From Escherichia coli (GTDB lineage Bacteria; Pseudomonadota; Gammaproteobacteria; Enterobacterales; Enterobacteriaceae), in NCBI RefSeq assembly GCF_016903815.1, contig NZ_CP069971.1: DNA of 48,644 nt; one strand, written 5' to 3'. Below the pieces are notes generated by a model. That model was not told where the DNA came from. It searched no databases and saw nothing but the letters and a program-made list of their open reading frames with translations. Numbering within the stretch: position 1 is the first letter of the stretch; every line of letters begins with the position of its first letter. Shown piece after piece: positions 4,684 to 48,644 of this stretch. The position numbers and the translations under genes were made by a program.

Positions 4684-4706
4684 CCAAACACATGGAGTCT
4701 CGACAA

Positions 4707-5360
4707 ATGACTATCTCTGTAGGTATTTTCAACGGAAAAGGCGGCGTAACCAAATCAACAATTGCCCGTGCTTTAGCAGTTGCTTATGCAAAGGCTGGCT
4801 GGAATGTATGCCTGATCGATATGGATGTGCTTAACGGAACGGTAACGCGTTGGGTACAACGCAGAATGGCCAACAATATCGAACCAGCAATCGCGGCGCA
4901 GCCGTGCGGCACACCATCACAAGTCCAGAAAATCATCGAATCAGAAGTATACGACCTGGTTATCGTCGATGGCGGTGCCTACGCATCTGAATCAGTACCG
5001 AAGCTCTCTGAATTTCTGGATATGGTTATTTTGCCAACCAGATTCTCTACCGATGACCTGGAAACCACCGTTAACACAGCTCACGGCATCGTTAAAAAGG
5101 GTGTACCAATCAAGAAAATTTGCATGGTGTTTTCCGGCGCGGCTGAAAACGAAGCTGACTATATTGAAGCCCAAGAGTACCTGGCTAATACGCCATACTT
5201 TGTTGTCGATAAGTACATTCCCCACAAGCCAGCTCTGAGCAAAGCTCAGGATAAGGGCTTAAGCCTTATTGAGTGCTCATACGTTGCGCCACGCAAAAAG
5301 GCAGACGATGTTATCCAGGGGATTATCAATCAGCTTGAGGCTCTGACTACTGCCGCGTAA
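4707..5360 (+). CDS. parA: ParA-family partition ATPase (deviant Walker A)
   Basis: MTISVGIFNGKGGVTKSTIA...CLIDMD; GGAG RBS about 10 nt upstream of the ATG at 4707 (the ORF track starts at an upstream in-frame ATG, 4692). Confidence 0.8.
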   Translation: MTISVGIFNGKGGVTKSTIARALAVAYAKAGWNVCLIDMDVLNGTVTRWVQRRMANNIEPAIAAQPCGTPSQVQKIIESEVYDLVIVDGGAYASESVPKLSEFLDMVILPTRFSTDDLETTVNTAHGIVKKGVPIKKICMVFSGAAENEADYIEAQEYLANTPYFVVDKYIPHKPALSKAQDKGLSLIECSYVAPRKKADDVIQGIINQLEALTTAA

Positions 5361-5391
5361 TATATAATTATAGTTTTATAGATTTATATAA
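5361..5391. repeat. AT-rich palindromic site between parA and the ParG-like gene
   Basis: tatataattatag ttt tatagatttatataa, the same motif family as at 4590-4683. Confidence 0.45.
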
Positions 5392-5403
5392 AAGGGGATA
5401 CAC

Positions 5404-5652
5404 ATGGCCGCACCATCAAAACCACCGAAAAAGAACAGCAAAGGCGTACCGCCATCAATCGAACAACCGCAGGTTTTCGACCCGACTGAAACGCCGACCA
5501 GAACCAAATCAGGTGGGGCACAAATGGCGTTTAACGTCGACCCTGAATTTAAACGCGAGTACAAAACGTTCGCCAGCTCAATGGATATGTCATTGAAAGA
5601 AGTGCTGACAAAATCTTTTGAGTTACTCAAGGCTCAATACAACCAGAAGTAA
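5404..5652 (+). CDS. small partition/centromere-binding protein, ParG-like (predicted ribbon-helix-helix)
   Basis: 82 aa; flexible basic N-terminus and C-terminal MAFNVDPEFKREYKTFASSMDMSLKEVL, RHH-like; immediately downstream of parA. Confidence 0.55.
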   Translation: MAAPSKPPKKNSKGVPPSIEQPQVFDPTETPTRTKSGGAQMAFNVDPEFKREYKTFASSMDMSLKEVLTKSFELLKAQYNQK

Positions 5653-5874: not shown

Positions 5875-5900
5875 AAAAAAGGCCCCCGAAGGGGCCTAAT
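5875..5900 (-). terminator. intrinsic terminator (GGCCCC-CGAA-GGGGCC, T-run on minus strand)
   Basis: Perfect GC hairpin flanked by an A6 run on the plus strand, i.e. T6 on the minus strand; lies between convergent genes. Confidence 0.65.
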
Positions 5901-5902
5901 CG

Positions 5903-6022
5903 CTACTTGCTGCTAATGTTTATCGTCACATTCAGAGCGTTATCAGTAATCTTCCAACCCTCCCCATGTGGCGTAAACAAAGCTCCAGTAACAACGATAA
6001 AAATACACATACAGTATTTTTT
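5903..6022 (-). CDS. small hydrophobic peptide (about 40 aa), function unknown
   Basis: MKKYCMCIFIVVTGALFTPHGEGWKITDNALNVTINISSK with an AGGG RBS, ending at the terminator hairpin. Confidence 0.3.
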   Translation of the reverse strand, partial: KKYCMCIFIVVTGALFTPHGEGWKITDNALNVTINISSK

Positions 6023-6423
6023 CATTGTATGGCCCTTACAGGCCGTTTCACGGCATCCCCACCGACGAAAACAACGCGAGAGCAAGCACGGCTGCTTGTG
6101 CTTGCATGTACGGCAACGGAGAATCCTCCCCTAAAGTCGGTGCCCGGGTGCGAATCGGCGGGAAGGTCCACAGGTATTTTACGATTATTTTAAGATTAGT
6201 TATAGGAAAGAAATTAAACGAAAAAACTCGTTTATTTTCACAAAATCAGTAACCTACCCACAATCTGTGAGTTTGCAGGCACAACAAGAACCACAATTTT
6301 ATGAAGCATAATAGTGGACTATTATTACCTTTTGGGTAAAATTAACTTGCTGCTTGTGCTTGCGTGGTTGTTTATACAACAACGTAATGCTGAAAGGACC
6401 GCGAATCCGATCAGCACGAAAGA

Positions 6424-6483: not shown

Positions 6484-6593
6484 TGTCTCTGTTAAAATCC
6501 CGCCGTATTGACATAAATGCGCCATTGGTGGACACTTTCCTAGCCGTAGCAAAATCTACGGTCGGGATTGGAACCCCGTAGACACAATGGCGC

Positions 6594-6616
6594 ATACCGC
6601 GTTAGCGGTTTTTTTA
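6594..6616 (+). terminator. second terminator-like hairpin in the antirepressor leader
   Basis: ACCGC-GTTA-GCGGT followed by T7. Confidence 0.45.
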
Positions 6617-6781
6617 TGCGTAAAGCACTGCTACACCCAAATTATGGTGGGGCGTGCGGGGGAGTCGTAAGACTCGCCGGTTCGTCATTGTGTCCGGTAG
6701 TTCCAACCCTGCACGTCTCACCACCCAATGATTGGAACCTGACGGTGGTGAGTATCCTTAACCTTTAAGGGAATCATCACA

Positions 6782-6973
6782 ATGACAAACCTACCCCATG
6801 ACTATTACGTCAACCTCGTAAAGATCCTTCTCAAGAAAGCCTCATACGCCGATAAATTCCGCCTGGCTGAAATAATCGAGCGCGAAGCTATGCGCATCGC
6901 CAGCAACGATAACGCTGTTTCTGTCGCAAAAATCTCCCTCGTAACCAAAGTAGTTATGGGAGGTGCAAAATGA
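6782..6973 (+). CDS. small protein translationally coupled to the antirepressor gene
   Basis: 63 aa; its stop overlaps the ATG of the next gene (ATGA overlap at 6970). Confidence 0.45.
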   Translation: MTNLPHDYYVNLVKILLKKASYADKFRLAEIIEREAMRIASNDNAVSVAKISLVTKVVMGGAK

Positions 6974-8151
6974 AAACGCTTCCGACCGTTAACACCCTAC
7001 AGCCTATCCTGCATAACCAGATCCCCGTTATCACTACTGAACTACTGGCGCAATTGTATGGAACCGAGCGCCAACGTCTGACGAACAATTTCAATAGAAA
7101 CAAGGAACGTTTTATAGAAGGTAAACACTTTTTTAGGATAGAAGGTAAAGAGTTACGAGAGTTGAAGAACAAAAACTCTTTAAGAGTTCCTGTGAGAGTA
7201 GTTAACGAACCATCTTTAAGAGGGTTACAAATTCCCCCGAAAGTTCGCTCCCTCATCCTCTGGACAGAACGCGGGGCTGCACGTCACGCCAAAATGCTTG
7301 AAACTAACCAAGCGTGGGATGTGTTCGAACGGCTGGAAGACTGCTATTTCAGCCAGAACGCGCAAACGGCCGCGACCGTAACCGTCTCGCCAAGCAATGC
7401 TCGTGAGGTTGTTGATACGCTCAACGCCAAACCAATGTATTACGTTAAGGTGTGCAATAACGAGCCACTCACAACCTCAGCCGATGTTGCCCAGGCATTC
7501 AGCACCACAAACAATTCCATCGTTATGGCCATCGATGCGTTACGCATTCCTCGCACAGCTGCGGCGCGTCATTTCTTTAAAGAGCAACGACCGTTGGAAG
7601 GAAGCGACCGCGAAATAACAATCTATCGCATGACAAAAGACGGATTTACCTTGCTCATGGAAAGTATCGACGGTCCAAGCGTGAAGGATATCAAGCTGGC
7701 CTACATTGAAGCTTTTAACGCTATCAGCAGCGTGTTAAAGGCAGAATACGAGCGAATACTATACAACCGACTGTATCAGGAAACAAAGATTATCCGAACG
7801 GCAACAGAACATCATCGGCTATTAACGGAACCAAACTACCGCAAGACACTAATCAAAGAGTTTGACAAAGCGACGGAGAAAACTAAAGCGGCACTAAATC
7901 TACCAACAATGACTAAGGATGATGTGATATCAGCCTTACTTCTTGATCTACTCAGAAACGCCAGAGCACTTATAAGCTTTGACGAAAACCTGAATCCTCA
8001 GCTCAAGCTACTACCACCGACAGGCAAAGTAGTCGACCAGGCTGATCACAACAGCATACTCAGCGTTCTGGATGCAAACCTGCCAGCCAGGACACTACAG
8101 GAACTGATAAAAATATCTGCGGATAAACTGGCCGCAGGTGCAAAACCATAA
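6970..8151 (+). CDS. antirepressor-like protein (ORF6N/KilA-type N-terminal domain)
   Basis: 393 aa; N-terminal ...NNFNRNKERFIEGKHFFRIEGKELRELK...LILWTERGAARHAKMLETNQAWDVFERLEDCYF matches the ORF6N-type antirepressor pattern as I recall it. Confidence 0.6.
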   Translation: MKTLPTVNTLQPILHNQIPVITTELLAQLYGTERQRLTNNFNRNKERFIEGKHFFRIEGKELRELKNKNSLRVPVRVVNEPSLRGLQIPPKVRSLILWTERGAARHAKMLETNQAWDVFERLEDCYFSQNAQTAATVTVSPSNAREVVDTLNAKPMYYVKVCNNEPLTTSADVAQAFSTTNNSIVMAIDALRIPRTAAARHFFKEQRPLEGSDREITIYRMTKDGFTLLMESIDGPSVKDIKLAYIEAFNAISSVLKAEYERILYNRLYQETKIIRTATEHHRLLTEPNYRKTLIKEFDKATEKTKAALNLPTMTKDDVISALLLDLLRNARALISFDENLNPQLKLLPPTGKVVDQADHNSILSVLDANLPARTLQELIKISADKLAAGAKP

Positions 8152-11940: not shown

Positions 11941-12236
11941 ACATCTGTTTTGTTATCAATGAAGATTAACCCTAACCCAGCGAAGTAACACAGCAGCGCC
12001 CAGGCTGCATACGGAATGCTGGATCTGGATGTGGACTCCTTTAACATCTGCCAGTTGCGAACATTGCGACTATCTTTTAAGCCAAGTTTTTTGGCCAACT
12101 GCGATCCGCTCATTCCGGTCAGGCCAATGACTGCCCGAACTTCTCCACATGTAGGAGATTCCCATTCATCCGCTTTTTTTAAACAAGCCGGATTCAACAT
12201 TTTTAAAACAGTATCTTTATCCATAACCATCTCCAT
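11937..12236 (-). CDS. hypothetical protein with HTH-like segment
   Basis: 99 aa; ...IGLTGMSGSQLAKKLGLKDSRNVRNW... Confidence 0.4.
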   Translation of the reverse strand: MEMVMDKDTVLKMLNPACLKKADEWESPTCGEVRAVIGLTGMSGSQLAKKLGLKDSRNVRNWQMLKESTSRSSIPYAAWALLCYFAGLGLIFIDNKTDV

Positions 12237-12599
12237 TTATTATATCTACGATGGTAGGAAATCTTTTCCTATGTGGCAATAGAAATTTACTACATTGCGT
12301 ATAAGACAAGTTTTCTATGTCTAATAGGAAATGATGTTTCTTACGTTTTATCGCGTTCTGATGGCTACTGTGTGCGTATTTATCGATGTTTATTGATAAG
12401 GCTCGCCCCTTCCTCCTGCAAAGCCCGGCCGTAGGCCTTATTTCGGCCTTATATAAATTGATTTTGTATAGTTCGAAACGCGCCGTTTCGAAAAGGATGA
12501 TCAGGCTGCTCCATGCCTCCGGCAAGTGCCGGAGGAGGTATATTTGAGCGTAGCGACTCGAACCGGCGCGAGCTTTAGCTCGCTGCAAGGGCGAACATA

Positions 12600-12745
12600 T
12601 TCACAGGCAAAGCCTGCGTAAGTTAAATAAAGAAAGTTTTAATAAAAGAAAGTGATTTTGCATTTATTTGTTTAGTGCATCTATTATAAAAAACCATTTG
12701 CATATACATATCAAAACTGTGGATAACTTTATTATCCGATGCCTG
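12600..12745. other. oriR-like region: AT-rich tract plus inverted DnaA-box pair (TGTGGATAA 12718-12726; TTATCCGAT 12732-12740)
   Basis: Downstream of the repA stop, preceded by a GC-rich multi-hairpin segment (12380-12600). Confidence 0.5.
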
Positions 12746-12867
12746 TAAAGGCGATATTTTTGCTGTGTTCAGGTTTAGAGAAAATTAATTTAGATTGTTT
12801 TTTGAACAGATATTTTATTGCGACGTAGATAATCCTCCGGTAAAACCGGATTCATCATTCAGGTGGG

Positions 12868-13848
12868 TTAATGTTGGAGTGATTTCCAGGTCTTTCTTAG
12901 CCTGTTATAACGCTGCTCAACGAGGGAGCGTAAATATGCAAGGTCAGCACCAGGATACATGCCATCAGCAAATTCCTGGCTAACCTCTCTAGTGATTTGA
13001 TGACGAAGTTCGGCCTCTCCCTTTTCCTGAACAAGACGCGCAGCTCTCTCCGCTGCTTTCTGTTTTGCCTTTATCTCTCTGGCCGTCTTCCTCTGACGCC
13101 ATACATTCTCCATCTGCTCCTGAATAACAATACGCTTATAATCAGCCTCCGTTATCGCTTTTTTAAGCCGTTCGCTATTCTTCGCATTGAAGTAATTAAG
13201 TTTCTGGCTAACCGCACGTCTCCATGCTTGTTCAGTAATACCAACTGTTTCCAGCAGTTGATCACGAATCTCGATTTTCGCTGGCCAATACTGTTTATTC
13301 ACCCGATCCCAGCGACGTTCATAATCAATAAAACCTAACTCTTTCAGTTGCGACAACGCCCTTGTACAGCGCGTTATAGACTTGTTCCCAGCTTCGGATA
13401 CGGTAGACAGGCCGCAAAAATCAGCCAACGCCTCAGCACTGGCCAGAACCCGCTTAGAAATGATGTTTACATGGTGCAAAATCGCAGCAATCACAGCATT
13501 AATCGCCCGACGACGATGCTCGTTTATCCGGCGTTTCCGCTCTGACGGTTGATTAACGTAGAACGCAACCTCACACGTAAGATCACGACCATTAATGCGC
13601 TGTAAAGCATCAGATAACACCAGCGGCAGCTTGTGCGTATGGTGCTTTGGAGGCTGGAACTCCGGCGACAAATTACAAACGTAAGCTGAACGTAGAGACG
13701 GCATTGGTCTATCCATATGTTCGCTCTTGCGTCCACGGAAAACCAACGTATAATGGGAGTTGTCGAGGCGCCCATGGATTGTTGTTGTTGGTTTTCCGTG
13801 GATGTCGCAAGAAGCCCGCAGATTTATCTGCGGGCTTTTTGTTTCCAT
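12868..13848 (-). CDS. repA: replication initiator RepA (IncFII RepA-like); may include a leader ORF, with an alternative internal start near 13716
   Basis: ...CGLSTVSEAGNKSITRCTRALSQLKELGFIDYERR... resembles the conserved core of IncFII RepA1 (recalled, not searched). Confidence 0.65.
   Translation of the reverse strand: METKSPQINLRASCDIHGKPTTTIHGRLDNSHYTLVFRGRKSEHMDRPMPSLRSAYVCNLSPEFQPPKHHTHKLPLVLSDALQRINGRDLTCEVAFYVNQPSERKRRINEHRRRAINAVIAAILHHVNIISKRVLASAEALADFCGLSTVSEAGNKSITRCTRALSQLKELGFIDYERRWDRVNKQYWPAKIEIRDQLLETVGITEQAWRRAVSQKLNYFNAKNSERLKKAITEADYKRIVIQEQMENVWRQRKTAREIKAKQKAAERAARLVQEKGEAELRHQITREVSQEFADGMYPGADLAYLRSLVEQRYNRLRKTWKSLQH
13762..13840 (+). ncRNA. CopA-like antisense RNA opposite the repA 5' region (putative)
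   Basis: Plus-strand promoter TTGCGT (13727-13732), 16-nt spacer, TATAAT (13749-13754); terminator AGCCCGCAGAT..ATCTGCGGGCT + T-run at 13813-13840, antisense to the first repA codons and RBS. Confidence 0.5.
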
Positions 13849-14055
13849 ATCTGGTCATTTTCCAACCAGACACCCACAATCATAACCACGTTACGTGGTT
13901 TTAAGAGAACTCTACCACAACACTTTCGGTCATGCACGAAGTCTCTCACTGATCGAACGATAATCCACCAGTAAAAGGATCTAAATTGGATCTCGTTTTG
14001 CGAGCATCATACTACTGGCCTAACTCCAGTCAATGATGAACATAACAACACTCCT

Positions 14056-14583
14056 TTATTCTGGTTTGTCTGGCCATTCGGGGTTTGCTGTGTCCACGCG
14101 ACTGACAAGAACACTGTAACGTTCCCAGGCTTCCAGTCGGATACGCTCCTCATCTGTTGCCATGCTCAGCCTGACAGCGCGTTCCAGCGGCCGGATAACT
14201 GATTCAGCTTCGGAAAGTAACGTGGCCTTTTGTGATTCGGCCTGTTGTTGCTGTTCGCCTGCCGTATAAATCCGCTTAATCACGGCACCATCCTTAAACA
14301 TCCATTTACCTGAGTCATCAGCACGTCGGTTGGAGGTAATATCAGGAACCTCAACAACGCTAAAACCTTCAGGATTAAGCGTTGAAGCATCTCTGGTGAT
14401 AGCGACAATAATATTATTTTCATCGTAAACAATCTTTATTGTGTCTGGCTGAAAGTTCTTCACTTCCTCATACCAGTTTTTCCCGTCTTCAGTGTAAAGC
14501 CAGATGACTCCGTGCTTCTTTGTTAACTCATACTGTTCCAGTGTTTTAGCGTTACCCGCTTTTATGTTCTTTAAGTGCATCAT
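14056..14583 (-). CDS. tail fibre assembly protein (Tfa-like)
   Basis: C-terminal ...[27 protein letters not shown], the Tfa signature. Confidence 0.75.
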
Positions 14584-41987: not shown

Positions 41988-42575
41988 CTATGCCACTTGC
42001 CAGAGAGCATCATGCAACTGGATACCTCCATTGCACTGGTTGCCCCAGCCATGCCAACCATCAGGTAAATCACCGCGAGCAAACAGCTCAATACGAGGAA
42101 CATCACCTAACAGCCTTACCAGCTTGTCACGAACCACATCAGGCTTCCGAGAATGCTCCAGACGAGGCGATGTAAACGACTGAATGATCCCCGCATCAAG
42201 GCGGGTCGGCAATTTGCCTTTTACCGCAAACAAGCAATCTTCACTGTTTGCACGAGTCATATGCCCCATCCCCATCACCAGCTTATCTGGTTGTCGGCTA
42301 CCACATTTGTTCCATGTGAAGCCCTTCATGGTCATAAGCCTGAATCCCCATGCTTTCACCACCAGCAACGCTTCTTCTGGCTGAGTCGGAACCCACCACA
42401 TGGCCAACAAACACGATTCAGGATTAGCAAGCTGCCAGACAGGAATACGAGCAATATCCTCAGCTTTCATCGTTGGATACTTAAAACCAGCTCCACGATT
42501 CCCATCCTTACACTTATCTTTGTATTCCCAGGGGGGATCTGCATAAATCAGATTAAACAATGCAATTGCCTCCAT
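41988..42575 (-). CDS. MT-A70-family DNA N6-adenine methyltransferase
   Basis: 195 aa; LIYADPPWEY and ...SRKPDVVRDKL... motifs. Confidence 0.75.
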   Translation of the reverse strand: MEAIALFNLIYADPPWEYKDKCKDGNRGAGFKYPTMKAEDIARIPVWQLANPESCLLAMWWVPTQPEEALLVVKAWGFRLMTMKGFTWNKCGSRQPDKLVMGMGHMTRANSEDCLFAVKGKLPTRLDAGIIQSFTSPRLEHSRKPDVVRDKLVRLLGDVPRIELFARGDLPDGWHGWGNQCNGGIQLHDALWQVA

Positions 42576-42883: not shown

Positions 42884-42959
42884 TGGTGGCCCCTACCGGA
42901 TTTGAACCGATGACCGTGCGATTATGAGTCGCCTGCTCTAACCACTGAGCTAAGGGGCC
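42884..42959 (-). tRNA. tRNA with CAU anticodon (Met or Ile2-type)
   Basis: 76 nt; GGCCCCTTAGCTCAGTGGTTAGAGCAGGCGACTCATAATCGCACGGTCATCGGTTCAAATCCGGTAGGGGCCACCA; cloverleaf folds by eye, encoded CCA end. Confidence 0.8.
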
Positions 42960-48316: not shown

Positions 48317-48644
48317 TCAGGCTTTCAATAGCGATTCTTTCAGATATCGGGCATCAGCCAGGGCATTTGGAGTAATTTTGCGAATCCATGCATTACGGGT
48401 TGGACTCCACTTAAAGGCGCGTGATTTAAGCAGCGAACGAATGTTTGCCTCTGGTTTGCCAGGGAAATAAAACAGGATGCGGTTATCCTCTGGATCTATC
48501 TCCATAGAAAAGTCGTCGTATTCTTCGCGCTGTGCTCCTGTTACAGACTTGACCGATTCAAGCTCCTTAATACGGCTCTGTAGTCGTTTGATCTCGGCGT
48601 TATTGTTGCTCAGTACGTATGAAGGGAATCCGATGCGCCCAGAA
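48317..48644 (-). CDS. hypothetical protein, 5' end beyond the window
   Basis: The reading frame stays open from 48505 to the window end. Confidence 0.4.
   Translation of the reverse strand, partial: SGRIGFPSYVLSNNNAEIKRLQSRIKELESVKSVTGAQREEYDDFSMEIDPEDNRILFYFPGKPEANIRSLLKSRAFKWSPTRNAWIRKITPNALADARYLKESLLKA

Follow-up and report, generated by a model that had tools for sequence, protein, structure and literature searches.

We analysed a stretch of 48,644 nucleotides from Escherichia coli (NCBI RefSeq assembly GCF_016903815.1, contig NZ_CP069971.1), called the window in the following, and find that its positions 12380-14033 almost certainly constitute the basic replicon of a circular phage-plasmid. 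The data support a plasmid-type theta replicon, with the initiator gene repA followed by the origin, inside a phage genome living extrachromosomally. The explanation that we regard as best, and as reasonably probable, combines this replicon with an antisense RNA encoded opposite the repA leader and with a refolding of the leader from one stem-loop (SL-II) into another (SL-III). According to this model, a promoter at 14033..14006 would drive minus-strand transcription of a structured leader of ~290 nt and then of repA, and the copy number would be set by a constitutive plus-strand RNA of ~84 nt, whose promoter lies within the apical loop of SL-II and which would end at an intrinsic terminator. 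In the free mRNA SL-II would form and leave the repA start region largely open. In the bound mRNA the antisense RNA would base-pair both to a first stem-loop (SL-I) and to the 5' arm of SL-II; the released 3' arm of SL-II would then pair with the repA initiation region to form SL-III, hiding the start codon so that no RepA is made. The 5' arm of SL-II would act as a 'pre-emptor' as in pT181 and pSK41, the output being translational, and RepA would presumably open the origin just downstream of its own gene. The features of the control region and of repA are as follows:

14006-14033, minus strand: probable repA promoter (TTGACT, 16-nt spacer, TATGAT), transcription start predicted near 13998
13705-13998, minus strand: untranslated repA leader, ~290 nt, predicted fold of -118.3 kcal/mol (z -7.7)
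13850-13870, minus strand: hairpin predicted in the leader fold just upstream of SL-I; homologues keep a hairpin with different sequences
13812-13837, both strands: palindrome, the terminator on the plus strand and SL-I on the minus strand
13726-13811, minus strand: SL-II, large leader hairpin with arms 13811-13787 and 13747-13726 and the antisense -10 element in its apical loop
13702-13748, minus strand: SL-III, predicted alternative hairpin of the SL-II 3' arm and the repA initiation region, including ATG 13716 and ATG 13704
13727-13754, plus strand: predicted antisense promoter, -35 TTGCGT (13727-13732), 16-nt spacer, -10 TATAAT (13749-13754)
13761-13844, plus strand: predicted antisense RNA, ~84 nt, with 5' tail, SL1 (13767-13806), terminator hairpin SL2 (13812-13837) and U-tail
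13779-13794, plus strand: hypervariable stretch, apical loop of SL1 and 5' part of the apical loop of SL-II in the mRNA
12868-13704, minus strand: repA, 278 aa; an alternative in-frame start at 13716 gives 282 aa

The extrachromosomal state of the element is seen directly in database records. In a BLAST search the whole window proves to be a circular permutation of the circular E. coli plasmid NZ_CP103765 (48,945 bp; 98-99.7% identity across the aligned blocks), window position 1 mapping to plasmid position 42087 and window position 48641 to 42093, i.e. the window ends abut. Three circular E. coli plasmids of 48.2-48.9 kb contain the region 12200-14050 with 100% identity, and ~55 further plasmids contain it with 95-99%. 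PLSDB contains 61 plasmids with the replicon region, their records being circular and 47-50 kb long, and PLSDB/MOB-suite assigns no replicon type to the element. We detect the replicon in 70 of 5,426 complete E. coli genomes (~1.3%), all 81 of its places therein being on plasmids and none (0/81) being chromosomal. The same region is 98-99% identical to the three Yersinia phages vB_YpM_39, 41 and 44, recorded in GenBank as 'complete genome' isolates propagated on Y. pestis EV76, and to two partial E. coli phage records, and the structural half of the element is 98% identical to the Yersinia phage isolates. These three isolates of the same element hold the only relatives of the window RepA (E<=1e-5) among 50,697 GenBank phage records.

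The annotation of NZ_CP103765 lists genes for virion and packaging functions (terminase, portal, protease, capsid, tail tube, tape measure, P2-like baseplate, tail fibres), for lysis (holins, endolysin) and for plasmid functions (RepA, ParA, a RelE/ParE toxin-antitoxin pair), i.e. a full myovirus gene set and RepA on one plasmid. This agrees with the sequence-only reading, an earlier interpretation made from the letters of the window, which had placed a replicon inside a phage genome, had argued for an extrachromosomal prophage lifestyle and had asked whether the source is circular and plasmid-like, as the near-identical NZ_CP103765 is. An integrase and att sites beyond the window, named there as a finding that would speak against this lifestyle, have no counterpart in the records: the window lacks an integrase, as that reading had stated, and none is annotated anywhere in the element. 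Its right boundary of the replicon at 13848 has to be moved outwards, since the replicon reaches the repA promoter at 14033..14006. With RepA as the only annotated initiator on an always-extrachromosomal plasmid, the segment is a putative autonomous replicon. P1/P7, N15 and SSU5/pHCM2 are likewise temperate phages kept as plasmids with their own rep and par genes, from which this element differs by its size of ~48 kb and its P2-like baseplate and tail genes. pSLy3 was rejected as a candidate for the same element, being an SSU5-type group of ~100 kb, and so was the 'pseudolysogenic' Yersinia phage HQ103, whose primers are absent from the window. The annotation of NZ_CP103765 shows neither a helicase nor a primase beside RepA as the sole replication initiator, and further contains several ParB/Srx-domain proteins, a Ref nuclease and an MT-A70 methyltransferase.

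The annotated minus-strand open reading frame (ORF) 12868-13848 encodes 326 aa and matches Pfam PF02387 (IncFII_repA) with an E-value of 6.7e-44 over model positions 2-272 of 275, confirming the RepA-like gene of the earlier reading. The NCBIfam model NF040977 (RepA_IncFII_LM) is reached with 233.1 bits (cut-off 70), and the strict IncFII equivalog TIGR03474 (incFII_RepA) gives 82 bits, far below its cut-off of 446.9. In a search of 72,556 plasmids, annotated IncFII RepA is ~32% identical to the window RepA over 45% of its length. These profile matches place RepA in the broad IncFII/L-M family of initiators; the designation 'IncFII-type' given earlier is thus appropriate in the broad sense of NF040977 and too narrow in the strict sense of TIGR03474.

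The conserved start of repA is probably ATG 13704, or else ATG 13716. The Pfam match begins only at residue 53 of the annotated protein, the annotated length of homologues (Salmonella, Klebsiella and others) is 277 aa, counted from the ATG equivalent to 13704, and in the alignment ATG 13848 is absent in the Salmonella homologues. The leader stretch varies in length by 1, 2, 3, 5 or 7 nt among relatives with intact repA, and since the indels not divisible by three break the frame, the first 44-48 codons of the 326-aa ORF are non-coding. For the E. coli lineage, AAGAG precedes ATG 13716, which lies in the repA frame. The 326-aa RepA of RefSeq/PGAP (cluster P0001, 525 member sequences) represents a systematic start-site mis-annotation over 13705-13848.

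A generic promoter scan of the region ranks the probable repA promoter first, with 10 of 12 positions matched. The tail-fibre assembly gene ends 23 nt before it, and no ORF intervenes. For comparison, we collected homologous leaders from plasmid, phage, assembly and metagenome records and sorted them into two groups: group 1, with RepA 62-100% identical and a leader alignable throughout, in which the promoter is kept as TTGACT...TAT(C/G)AT, and group 2, with RepA ~60% identical, a longer leader, unrelated hairpin-arm sequences and wholly different flanks.

On the opposite strand, both the perfect TATAAT at 13749-13754 and the plus-strand-only terminator of the sequence-only reading are found in the sequence, the G+C-rich hairpin 13812-13837 being followed by TTTTTGTTT, a T-run present on the plus strand only. 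Counted over the window TATAAT occurs at chance level (37 found, 35 expected), and what raises it and the candidate promoter above chance is conservation in the homologues. The -10 element and the CTCGACAAC block that follows it hardly vary within group 1 and are kept in group 2; in mRNA sense the block with the antisense -10 and the first transcribed bases reads CTCGACAAC-CC-ATTATA in both groups, and the terminator hairpin with its plus-strand T-run is kept in both groups as well. The predicted antisense RNAs are 77-87 nt long and share the architecture of 5' tail, SL1 and SL2 in 12 of 12 homologue types. The plus strand of 13758-13846 is predicted to fold into two hairpins with -41.1 kcal/mol (z -5.9), and in the alignment of the antisense strand 99.4% of cells are paired, three pairs are changed on both sides and the covariation score is reached by 0 of 500 shuffles. 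Several invariant G.U pairs of SL1 correspond to C.A mismatches on the mRNA strand, which argues for a structure selected on the plus-strand RNA. The 12 distinct leaders of the E. coli lineage (~394 nt) vary in 26 columns, of which 11 lie within a stretch of 17 columns in the SL1 apical loop, the variants of this hypervariable stretch including indels of 1-5 nt. A pattern scan of genome contigs with the conserved antisense-promoter block returned only chance matches in unrelated metagenome-assembled genomes, and the same pattern in metagenomes gave 15 true loci, mostly of the E. coli lineage.

From this conservation and covariation we infer that a real antisense RNA is quite likely transcribed at this locus, and the ~80-nt countertranscript postulated by the earlier reading is well supported. 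It has what generally marks a countertranscript, i.e. a candidate promoter and an intrinsic terminator opposite the rep leader and a short structured predicted RNA, and it would very probably limit RepA synthesis. The further claim that it covers the start codon and ribosome binding site (RBS) of repA does not hold, the conserved start being 46-58 nt beyond the 5' end of the RNA. As the RNA does not overlap the true repA start and RBS, direct occlusion of repA initiation is not the mechanism.

It is very unlikely that there is no functional antisense RNA and that the hairpin merely separates repA from the late tail-fibre operon as a terminator or insulator, with a fortuitous TATAAT. The hairpin does follow the tail-fibre assembly gene at a distance of ~215 nt, and the chance frequency of TATAAT and the weak -35 would fit this explanation. 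However, the T-run is on the plus strand only, on which no gene lies upstream, and, the repA promoter being placed between tail gene and hairpin, a minus-strand terminator would stop repA too. It also leaves aside the strand-specific G.U pairs in SL1 and the finding that the -10 element and the first transcribed bases are the best-conserved block of the leader where the flanks have diverged completely.

The leader opposite this RNA is predicted to form the two structures needed for the proposed switch. SL-II is contained in the minimum-free-energy fold of the leader; in its alignment (A3) 97.3% of cells are paired, four pairs are changed on both sides and the covariation score is reached by 0 of 500 shuffles, and group 2 forms a hairpin of SL-II-like architecture from unrelated arm sequences. 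In the palindrome of SL-I and SL2, AGAT/ATCT is exchanged for GGAT/ATCC within group 1 and for CTAA/TTAG in group 2, and these changes are compensatory. The part of the leader that is complementary to the antisense RNA comprises SL-I as well as the 5' arm and half of the loop of SL-II. In a constrained fold with pairing forbidden in the segment covered by the antisense RNA, mimicking the bound mRNA, SL-III is predicted over both candidate start codons, and the unpaired probability of the start region in the window falls from 0.57 to 0.14. Column-wise covariation of SL-III is impossible to count because indels shift the initiation region out of register, and we replaced it by per-sequence folds and a table of pairing partners. 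SL-III is predicted in 7 of 7 group-1 types, though their initiation regions differ in sequence and length, with the start codon in or beside the outer stem in every type and with two pairs compensated on both sides. For positions -12 to +3 the unpaired probability in group 1 decreases from 0.55-0.61 to 0.09-0.40, and the duplex of the SL-II arm with the start region reaches z-scores of -2.6 to -5.3, beating 195-200 of 200 dinucleotide shuffles. Based on these folds, a switch from SL-II to SL-III as the mode of action of the antisense RNA has, in our estimate, close to an even chance of being correct.

Several observations weigh against the proposed control. The switch is not significant in group 2, where the duplex z-scores range from +0.4 to -1.0 and accessibility drops only from 0.53-0.64 to 0.36-0.49, and one group-2 variant contains a C.A mismatch in SL-II. 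The antisense promoter has a weak -35 and was missed by the generic scan, because TTGCGT matches only 3 of 6 positions; the tetraloops of SL2 and SL-I are poor kissing partners; and the Shine-Dalgarno sequence and start of repA are uncertain between 13716 with its AAGAG and 13704. The covariation sample consists of 8 distinct group-1 sequences from ~5 lineages, so that its counts are low; many of the paired positions do not vary and are under constraint from the promoter and the opposite strand as well, and the folds are thermodynamic predictions.

A real and negatively acting antisense RNA might alternatively work without SL-III, either by RNase III cleavage of the duplex and mRNA decay or by transcriptional interference between the convergent promoters. 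This is unlikely, though the best placed of the alternatives: conservation of the antisense RNA gene is independent of a switch, the switch is weakly supported in group 2, and RNase III cleaves duplexes of the CopA-CopT type in plasmid R1. It leaves unexplained why all group-1 types show the compensatory changes in SL-III and retain the start codon in the stem despite the indels.

The refolding of SL-II into SL-III that we favour resembles the logic known from Gram-positive plasmids. RNAI of pSK41, one of the staphylococcal RepA_N plasmids, has ~83 nt and two stem-loops and acts ~100 nt upstream of the start, and in pSK41 and pT181 the antisense RNA induces a stem-loop of which, in the free mRNA, a 'pre-emptor' holds one arm (PMC5703833). 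The logic shared with the replicon proposed here would be an RNA of ~80 nt with two stem-loops that binds the leader far ahead of the start codon, and an induced hairpin sequestering the rep initiation region. The initiator family is unrelated, the hosts of these plasmids are Gram-positive and there is no sequence similarity, so that the likeness is one of mechanism only; moreover, the pT181 system works through termination of transcription, while SL-III in the window is not followed by a terminator.

We compared the control region with the two classical cassettes of the RepA family. With the IncFII plasmids R1 and R100 the replicon shares the RepA family PF02387, the order of promoter, long leader, repA and downstream origin and, as predicted here, an antisense RNA of ~80-90 nt with two stem-loops encoded inside the leader. 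The basic replicon of R1/R100 consists of copB, copA/CopT, tap, repA and oriR, and of this set the window lacks Rfam CopA, tap and copB. CopA (RF00042) has no match in 12200-14100 at E<=10 and none at gathering level in the whole window or the homologues; the search of 12200-14100 returns only terminator-like partial matches (Thr_leader, CsrC, trpB), with the terminator-type ones on the 13812-13837 hairpin. A true IncFII replicon used as control (L036) gives CopA with 99.2 bits beside annotated tap and 'replication regulatory protein' (copB) genes. No tap-like leader ORF with conserved start, frame or stop was found in three frames of four and then twelve homologues, and an invariant ATG in the SL-II loop (MGAS... 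frame) was rejected as a leader ORF, having no Shine-Dalgarno sequence and inconsistent ends and being absent in group 2. copB is absent, with no gene between the tail-fibre assembly gene and the repA promoter. Since four defining features fail (TIGR03474, CopA, tap and copB), the replicon does not belong to the IncFII control family, and of the term 'CopA-like' used in the earlier reading the structured countertranscript of ~80 nt in the leader stands and the membership in the CopA family does not.

Control of the CopA/tap type, in which the antisense RNA would block a leader ORF whose translation opens the repA start by coupling, is accordingly hard to reconcile with the homologues and decidedly unlikely. 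A minus-strand ORF from 13879 or 13858 to 13709 does end in a TAG 4 nt before ATG 13704 and might start beside the 3' end of the antisense RNA, and RepA is distantly related to IncFII RepA. Yet ATG 13858 is CTG in the Yersinia phage, both candidate ATGs are missing in Salmonella and the stop positions differ between homologues. Such an ORF would have to cross the stretch that varies by 1, 2, 3, 5 or 7 nt, no frame being preserved, and CopA and tap, both found in the IncFII control, are not seen here. In the refolding proposed for the window the antisense promoter is placed in the loop of a leader hairpin and no leader peptide is blocked.

The IncB, IncI-alpha and IncL-M plasmids (RNAI/Inc RNA, repB/repY, pseudoknot) share with the window the RepA family and a short countertranscript on the leader. 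Control of their type, i.e. a leader stem-loop and RBS-adjacent pseudoknot activating translation and an antisense RNA blocking the pseudoknot, would be in line with the NF040977 match of RepA and with the nearest non-phage relatives, in which PK-repBA (RF01089) is located directly upstream of repA: the plasmids L006 (2869-2989, 49.3 bits) and L005 (2355-2469, 56.7 bits), with RepA 63% and 37% identical to the window, respectively. We nevertheless consider it highly improbable here. PK-repBA has no match in 12200-14100 at E<=10 and none at gathering level in the whole window or in the phage-plasmid homologues L003, L009, L010, L012 and L013. The SL-I loop has only 4 nt, inspection by eye finds no pseudoknot partner of it or of the conserved GGGCGCC loop sequence near the repA start, and no repB/repY-like leader ORF is conserved. 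The antisense RNA of the window is, in addition, a two-hairpin RNA. As L006 and L005 carry PK-repBA, the control cassette before homologous repA differs between plasmid and phage-plasmid, and this phage-plasmid clade appears to have had its control region replaced.

The surroundings of the control region differ between relatives. Similarity to most of them stops at ~14037 (~14037-14056). In most relatives the repA promoter is immediately preceded by a DNA-invertase gene (hin/pin-type recombinase) and an invertible tail-fibre segment (L002 7831-8385, L003 2856-3443), and the window and a few plasmids are without the invertase and have the tail-fibre assembly gene at that place. On the other side of the leader, L010 (2528-3004), L007 (2516-3004) and also L011, all with RepA ~60% identical, carry an ORF of 158-162 aa between the antisense module and repA, whose start it overlaps (ATGA). 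This ORF encodes a truncated paralogue of RepA, matching its N-terminal half (27% identity, E 4e-10; NF040977 40-46 bits), and sits where the window has repA, directly after SL-II and with a good Shine-Dalgarno sequence.

Downstream of repA we find the following features of a putative origin:

12836-12850, minus strand: small hairpin 18 nt after the repA stop, in groups 1 and 2 and in L006; pairing kept (CCGGT/ACCGG versus CCAGT/GCTGG)
12718-12726, minus strand: perfect DnaA box TTATCCACA, 142 nt downstream of the repA stop; position shared by most homologues of the two groups
12600-12717, no strand assigned: AT-rich origin core with three ATGCA/TGCAT motifs (12659-12663, 12676-12680, 12699-12703)
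12546-12593, no strand assigned: G+C-rich hairpin block beyond the AT-rich region, kept in all homologue groups

The G+C content of 12600-12800 is 26-31%, compared with ~48% in the flanks. Across groups 1 and 2 and L006, conservation downstream of repA is highest in the blocks TATGCAAATGG, GATGCAC and AAATGCAAAATCAC; these homologues have in common the order of small hairpin, DnaA box, three ATGCA blocks in the AT-rich tract and G+C-rich hairpin. By number alone TTATNCACA is at chance level (2 found, 2.4 expected), and it is again conservation in the homologues that raises the DnaA box above chance. The ATGCA motifs, two of which are covered by the direct repeat D5, are candidate sites for RepA binding and unwinding, and together with the DnaA box and the AT-rich tract they support a putative origin. 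The oriR-like region of the earlier reading is retained with regard to the AT-rich tract and one perfect conserved DnaA box; an inverted pair of DnaA boxes is not present, since the second 'box' TTATCCGAT (12732-12740) matches only 6 of 9 positions and is not conserved. The block 12546-12593 recurs with 84-94% identity downstream of repA in pKPC_UVA01-type, Yersinia and Pantoea plasmids and may be a common priming or origin-associated signal of the RepA family; its place would correspond to that of the primase-dependent priming site of R1. Plasmids of Klebsiella, Enterobacter, Citrobacter, Pantoea, Serratia and Yersinia that are unrelated in other respects have the block as well. In oriR of R1 repA is followed by the DnaA box and then by RepA sites and AT-rich DNA (PMC5883639), and the window shows the same order with its candidate RepA sites, the perfect DnaA box being at the repA-proximal end of the putative origin.

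The element itself is already known from databases as annotated plasmids and phages, its carriers including the widely used reference strain E. coli ATCC 25922, whose plasmid CP009073 is 98.7% identical here. Our literature search found no paper on this plasmid group or its replication control, on vB_YpM_39/41/44 or on the ATCC 25922 plasmid replicon, and text passages of the tyPPing preprint on ten typed phage-plasmid groups, Table 1 aside, do not name it and give no sign that it falls into one of these groups. What is new is a putatively countertranscript-controlled IncFII/L-M RepA replicon with neither classical control cassette on a little-studied phage-plasmid, whose RepA annotation carries a 48-codon non-coding extension and whose replicon is untyped; better annotation and replicon typing of phage-plasmids would be the practical outcome. 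If the antisense RNA and the switch hold true, they would provide a handle on copy number and incompatibility of a common, unstudied phage-plasmid group, control cassettes would have been swapped as modules before homologous repA, with 63%-identical relatives using PK-repBA instead, and the pre-emptor logic of pSK41/pT181 would extend to an enterobacterial theta replicon. More tentatively, we suggest that the clade exchanged the classical cassettes (CopA/tap; RNAI, pseudoknot and leader peptide) for a leader-peptide-free refolding device undescribed in enterobacteria, and that the hypervariable loop might set incompatibility. With no other replication initiator annotated, this one replicon might serve both prophage maintenance and lytic replication.

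Outside the replicon, the window carries a candidate partition locus:

4692-5652, plus strand: parA (4692-5360), followed by an 82-aa ORF (5404-5652)

The parA product, annotated as 'ParA family protein' in a near-identical plasmid, scores 78.5 bits on NF041546 (cut-off 180) and is, by this similarity, a small ParA-type ATPase. The 82-aa ORF has no Pfam or NCBIfam match, so that of the ParA/ParG-like genes noted earlier ParA can be kept and the ParG label is positional only. Just downstream of the par locus, 5875-6171 on the minus strand matches the Rfam ryfA RNA with 142 bits (gathering 80), a stretch also covered by three overlapping plus-strand ORFs of 75 aa. Further plus-strand matches at Rfam gathering level are isrK at 6543-6615 and the C4 antisense RNA at 6640-6728 (77.8 bits), located upstream of a 393-aa ORF (6970-8151, plus strand) that is annotated as ORF6N-domain protein in a near-identical plasmid. 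The region 6543-8151 looks like an immunity module of the P1/P7 immI type (c4-ant) in a non-P1-like myovirus, a C4 antisense RNA upstream of an antirepressor-like gene being a feature that the window shares with P1. The phage-plasmid also carries a tRNA-Met gene with anticodon CAT at 42884-42959 on the minus strand.

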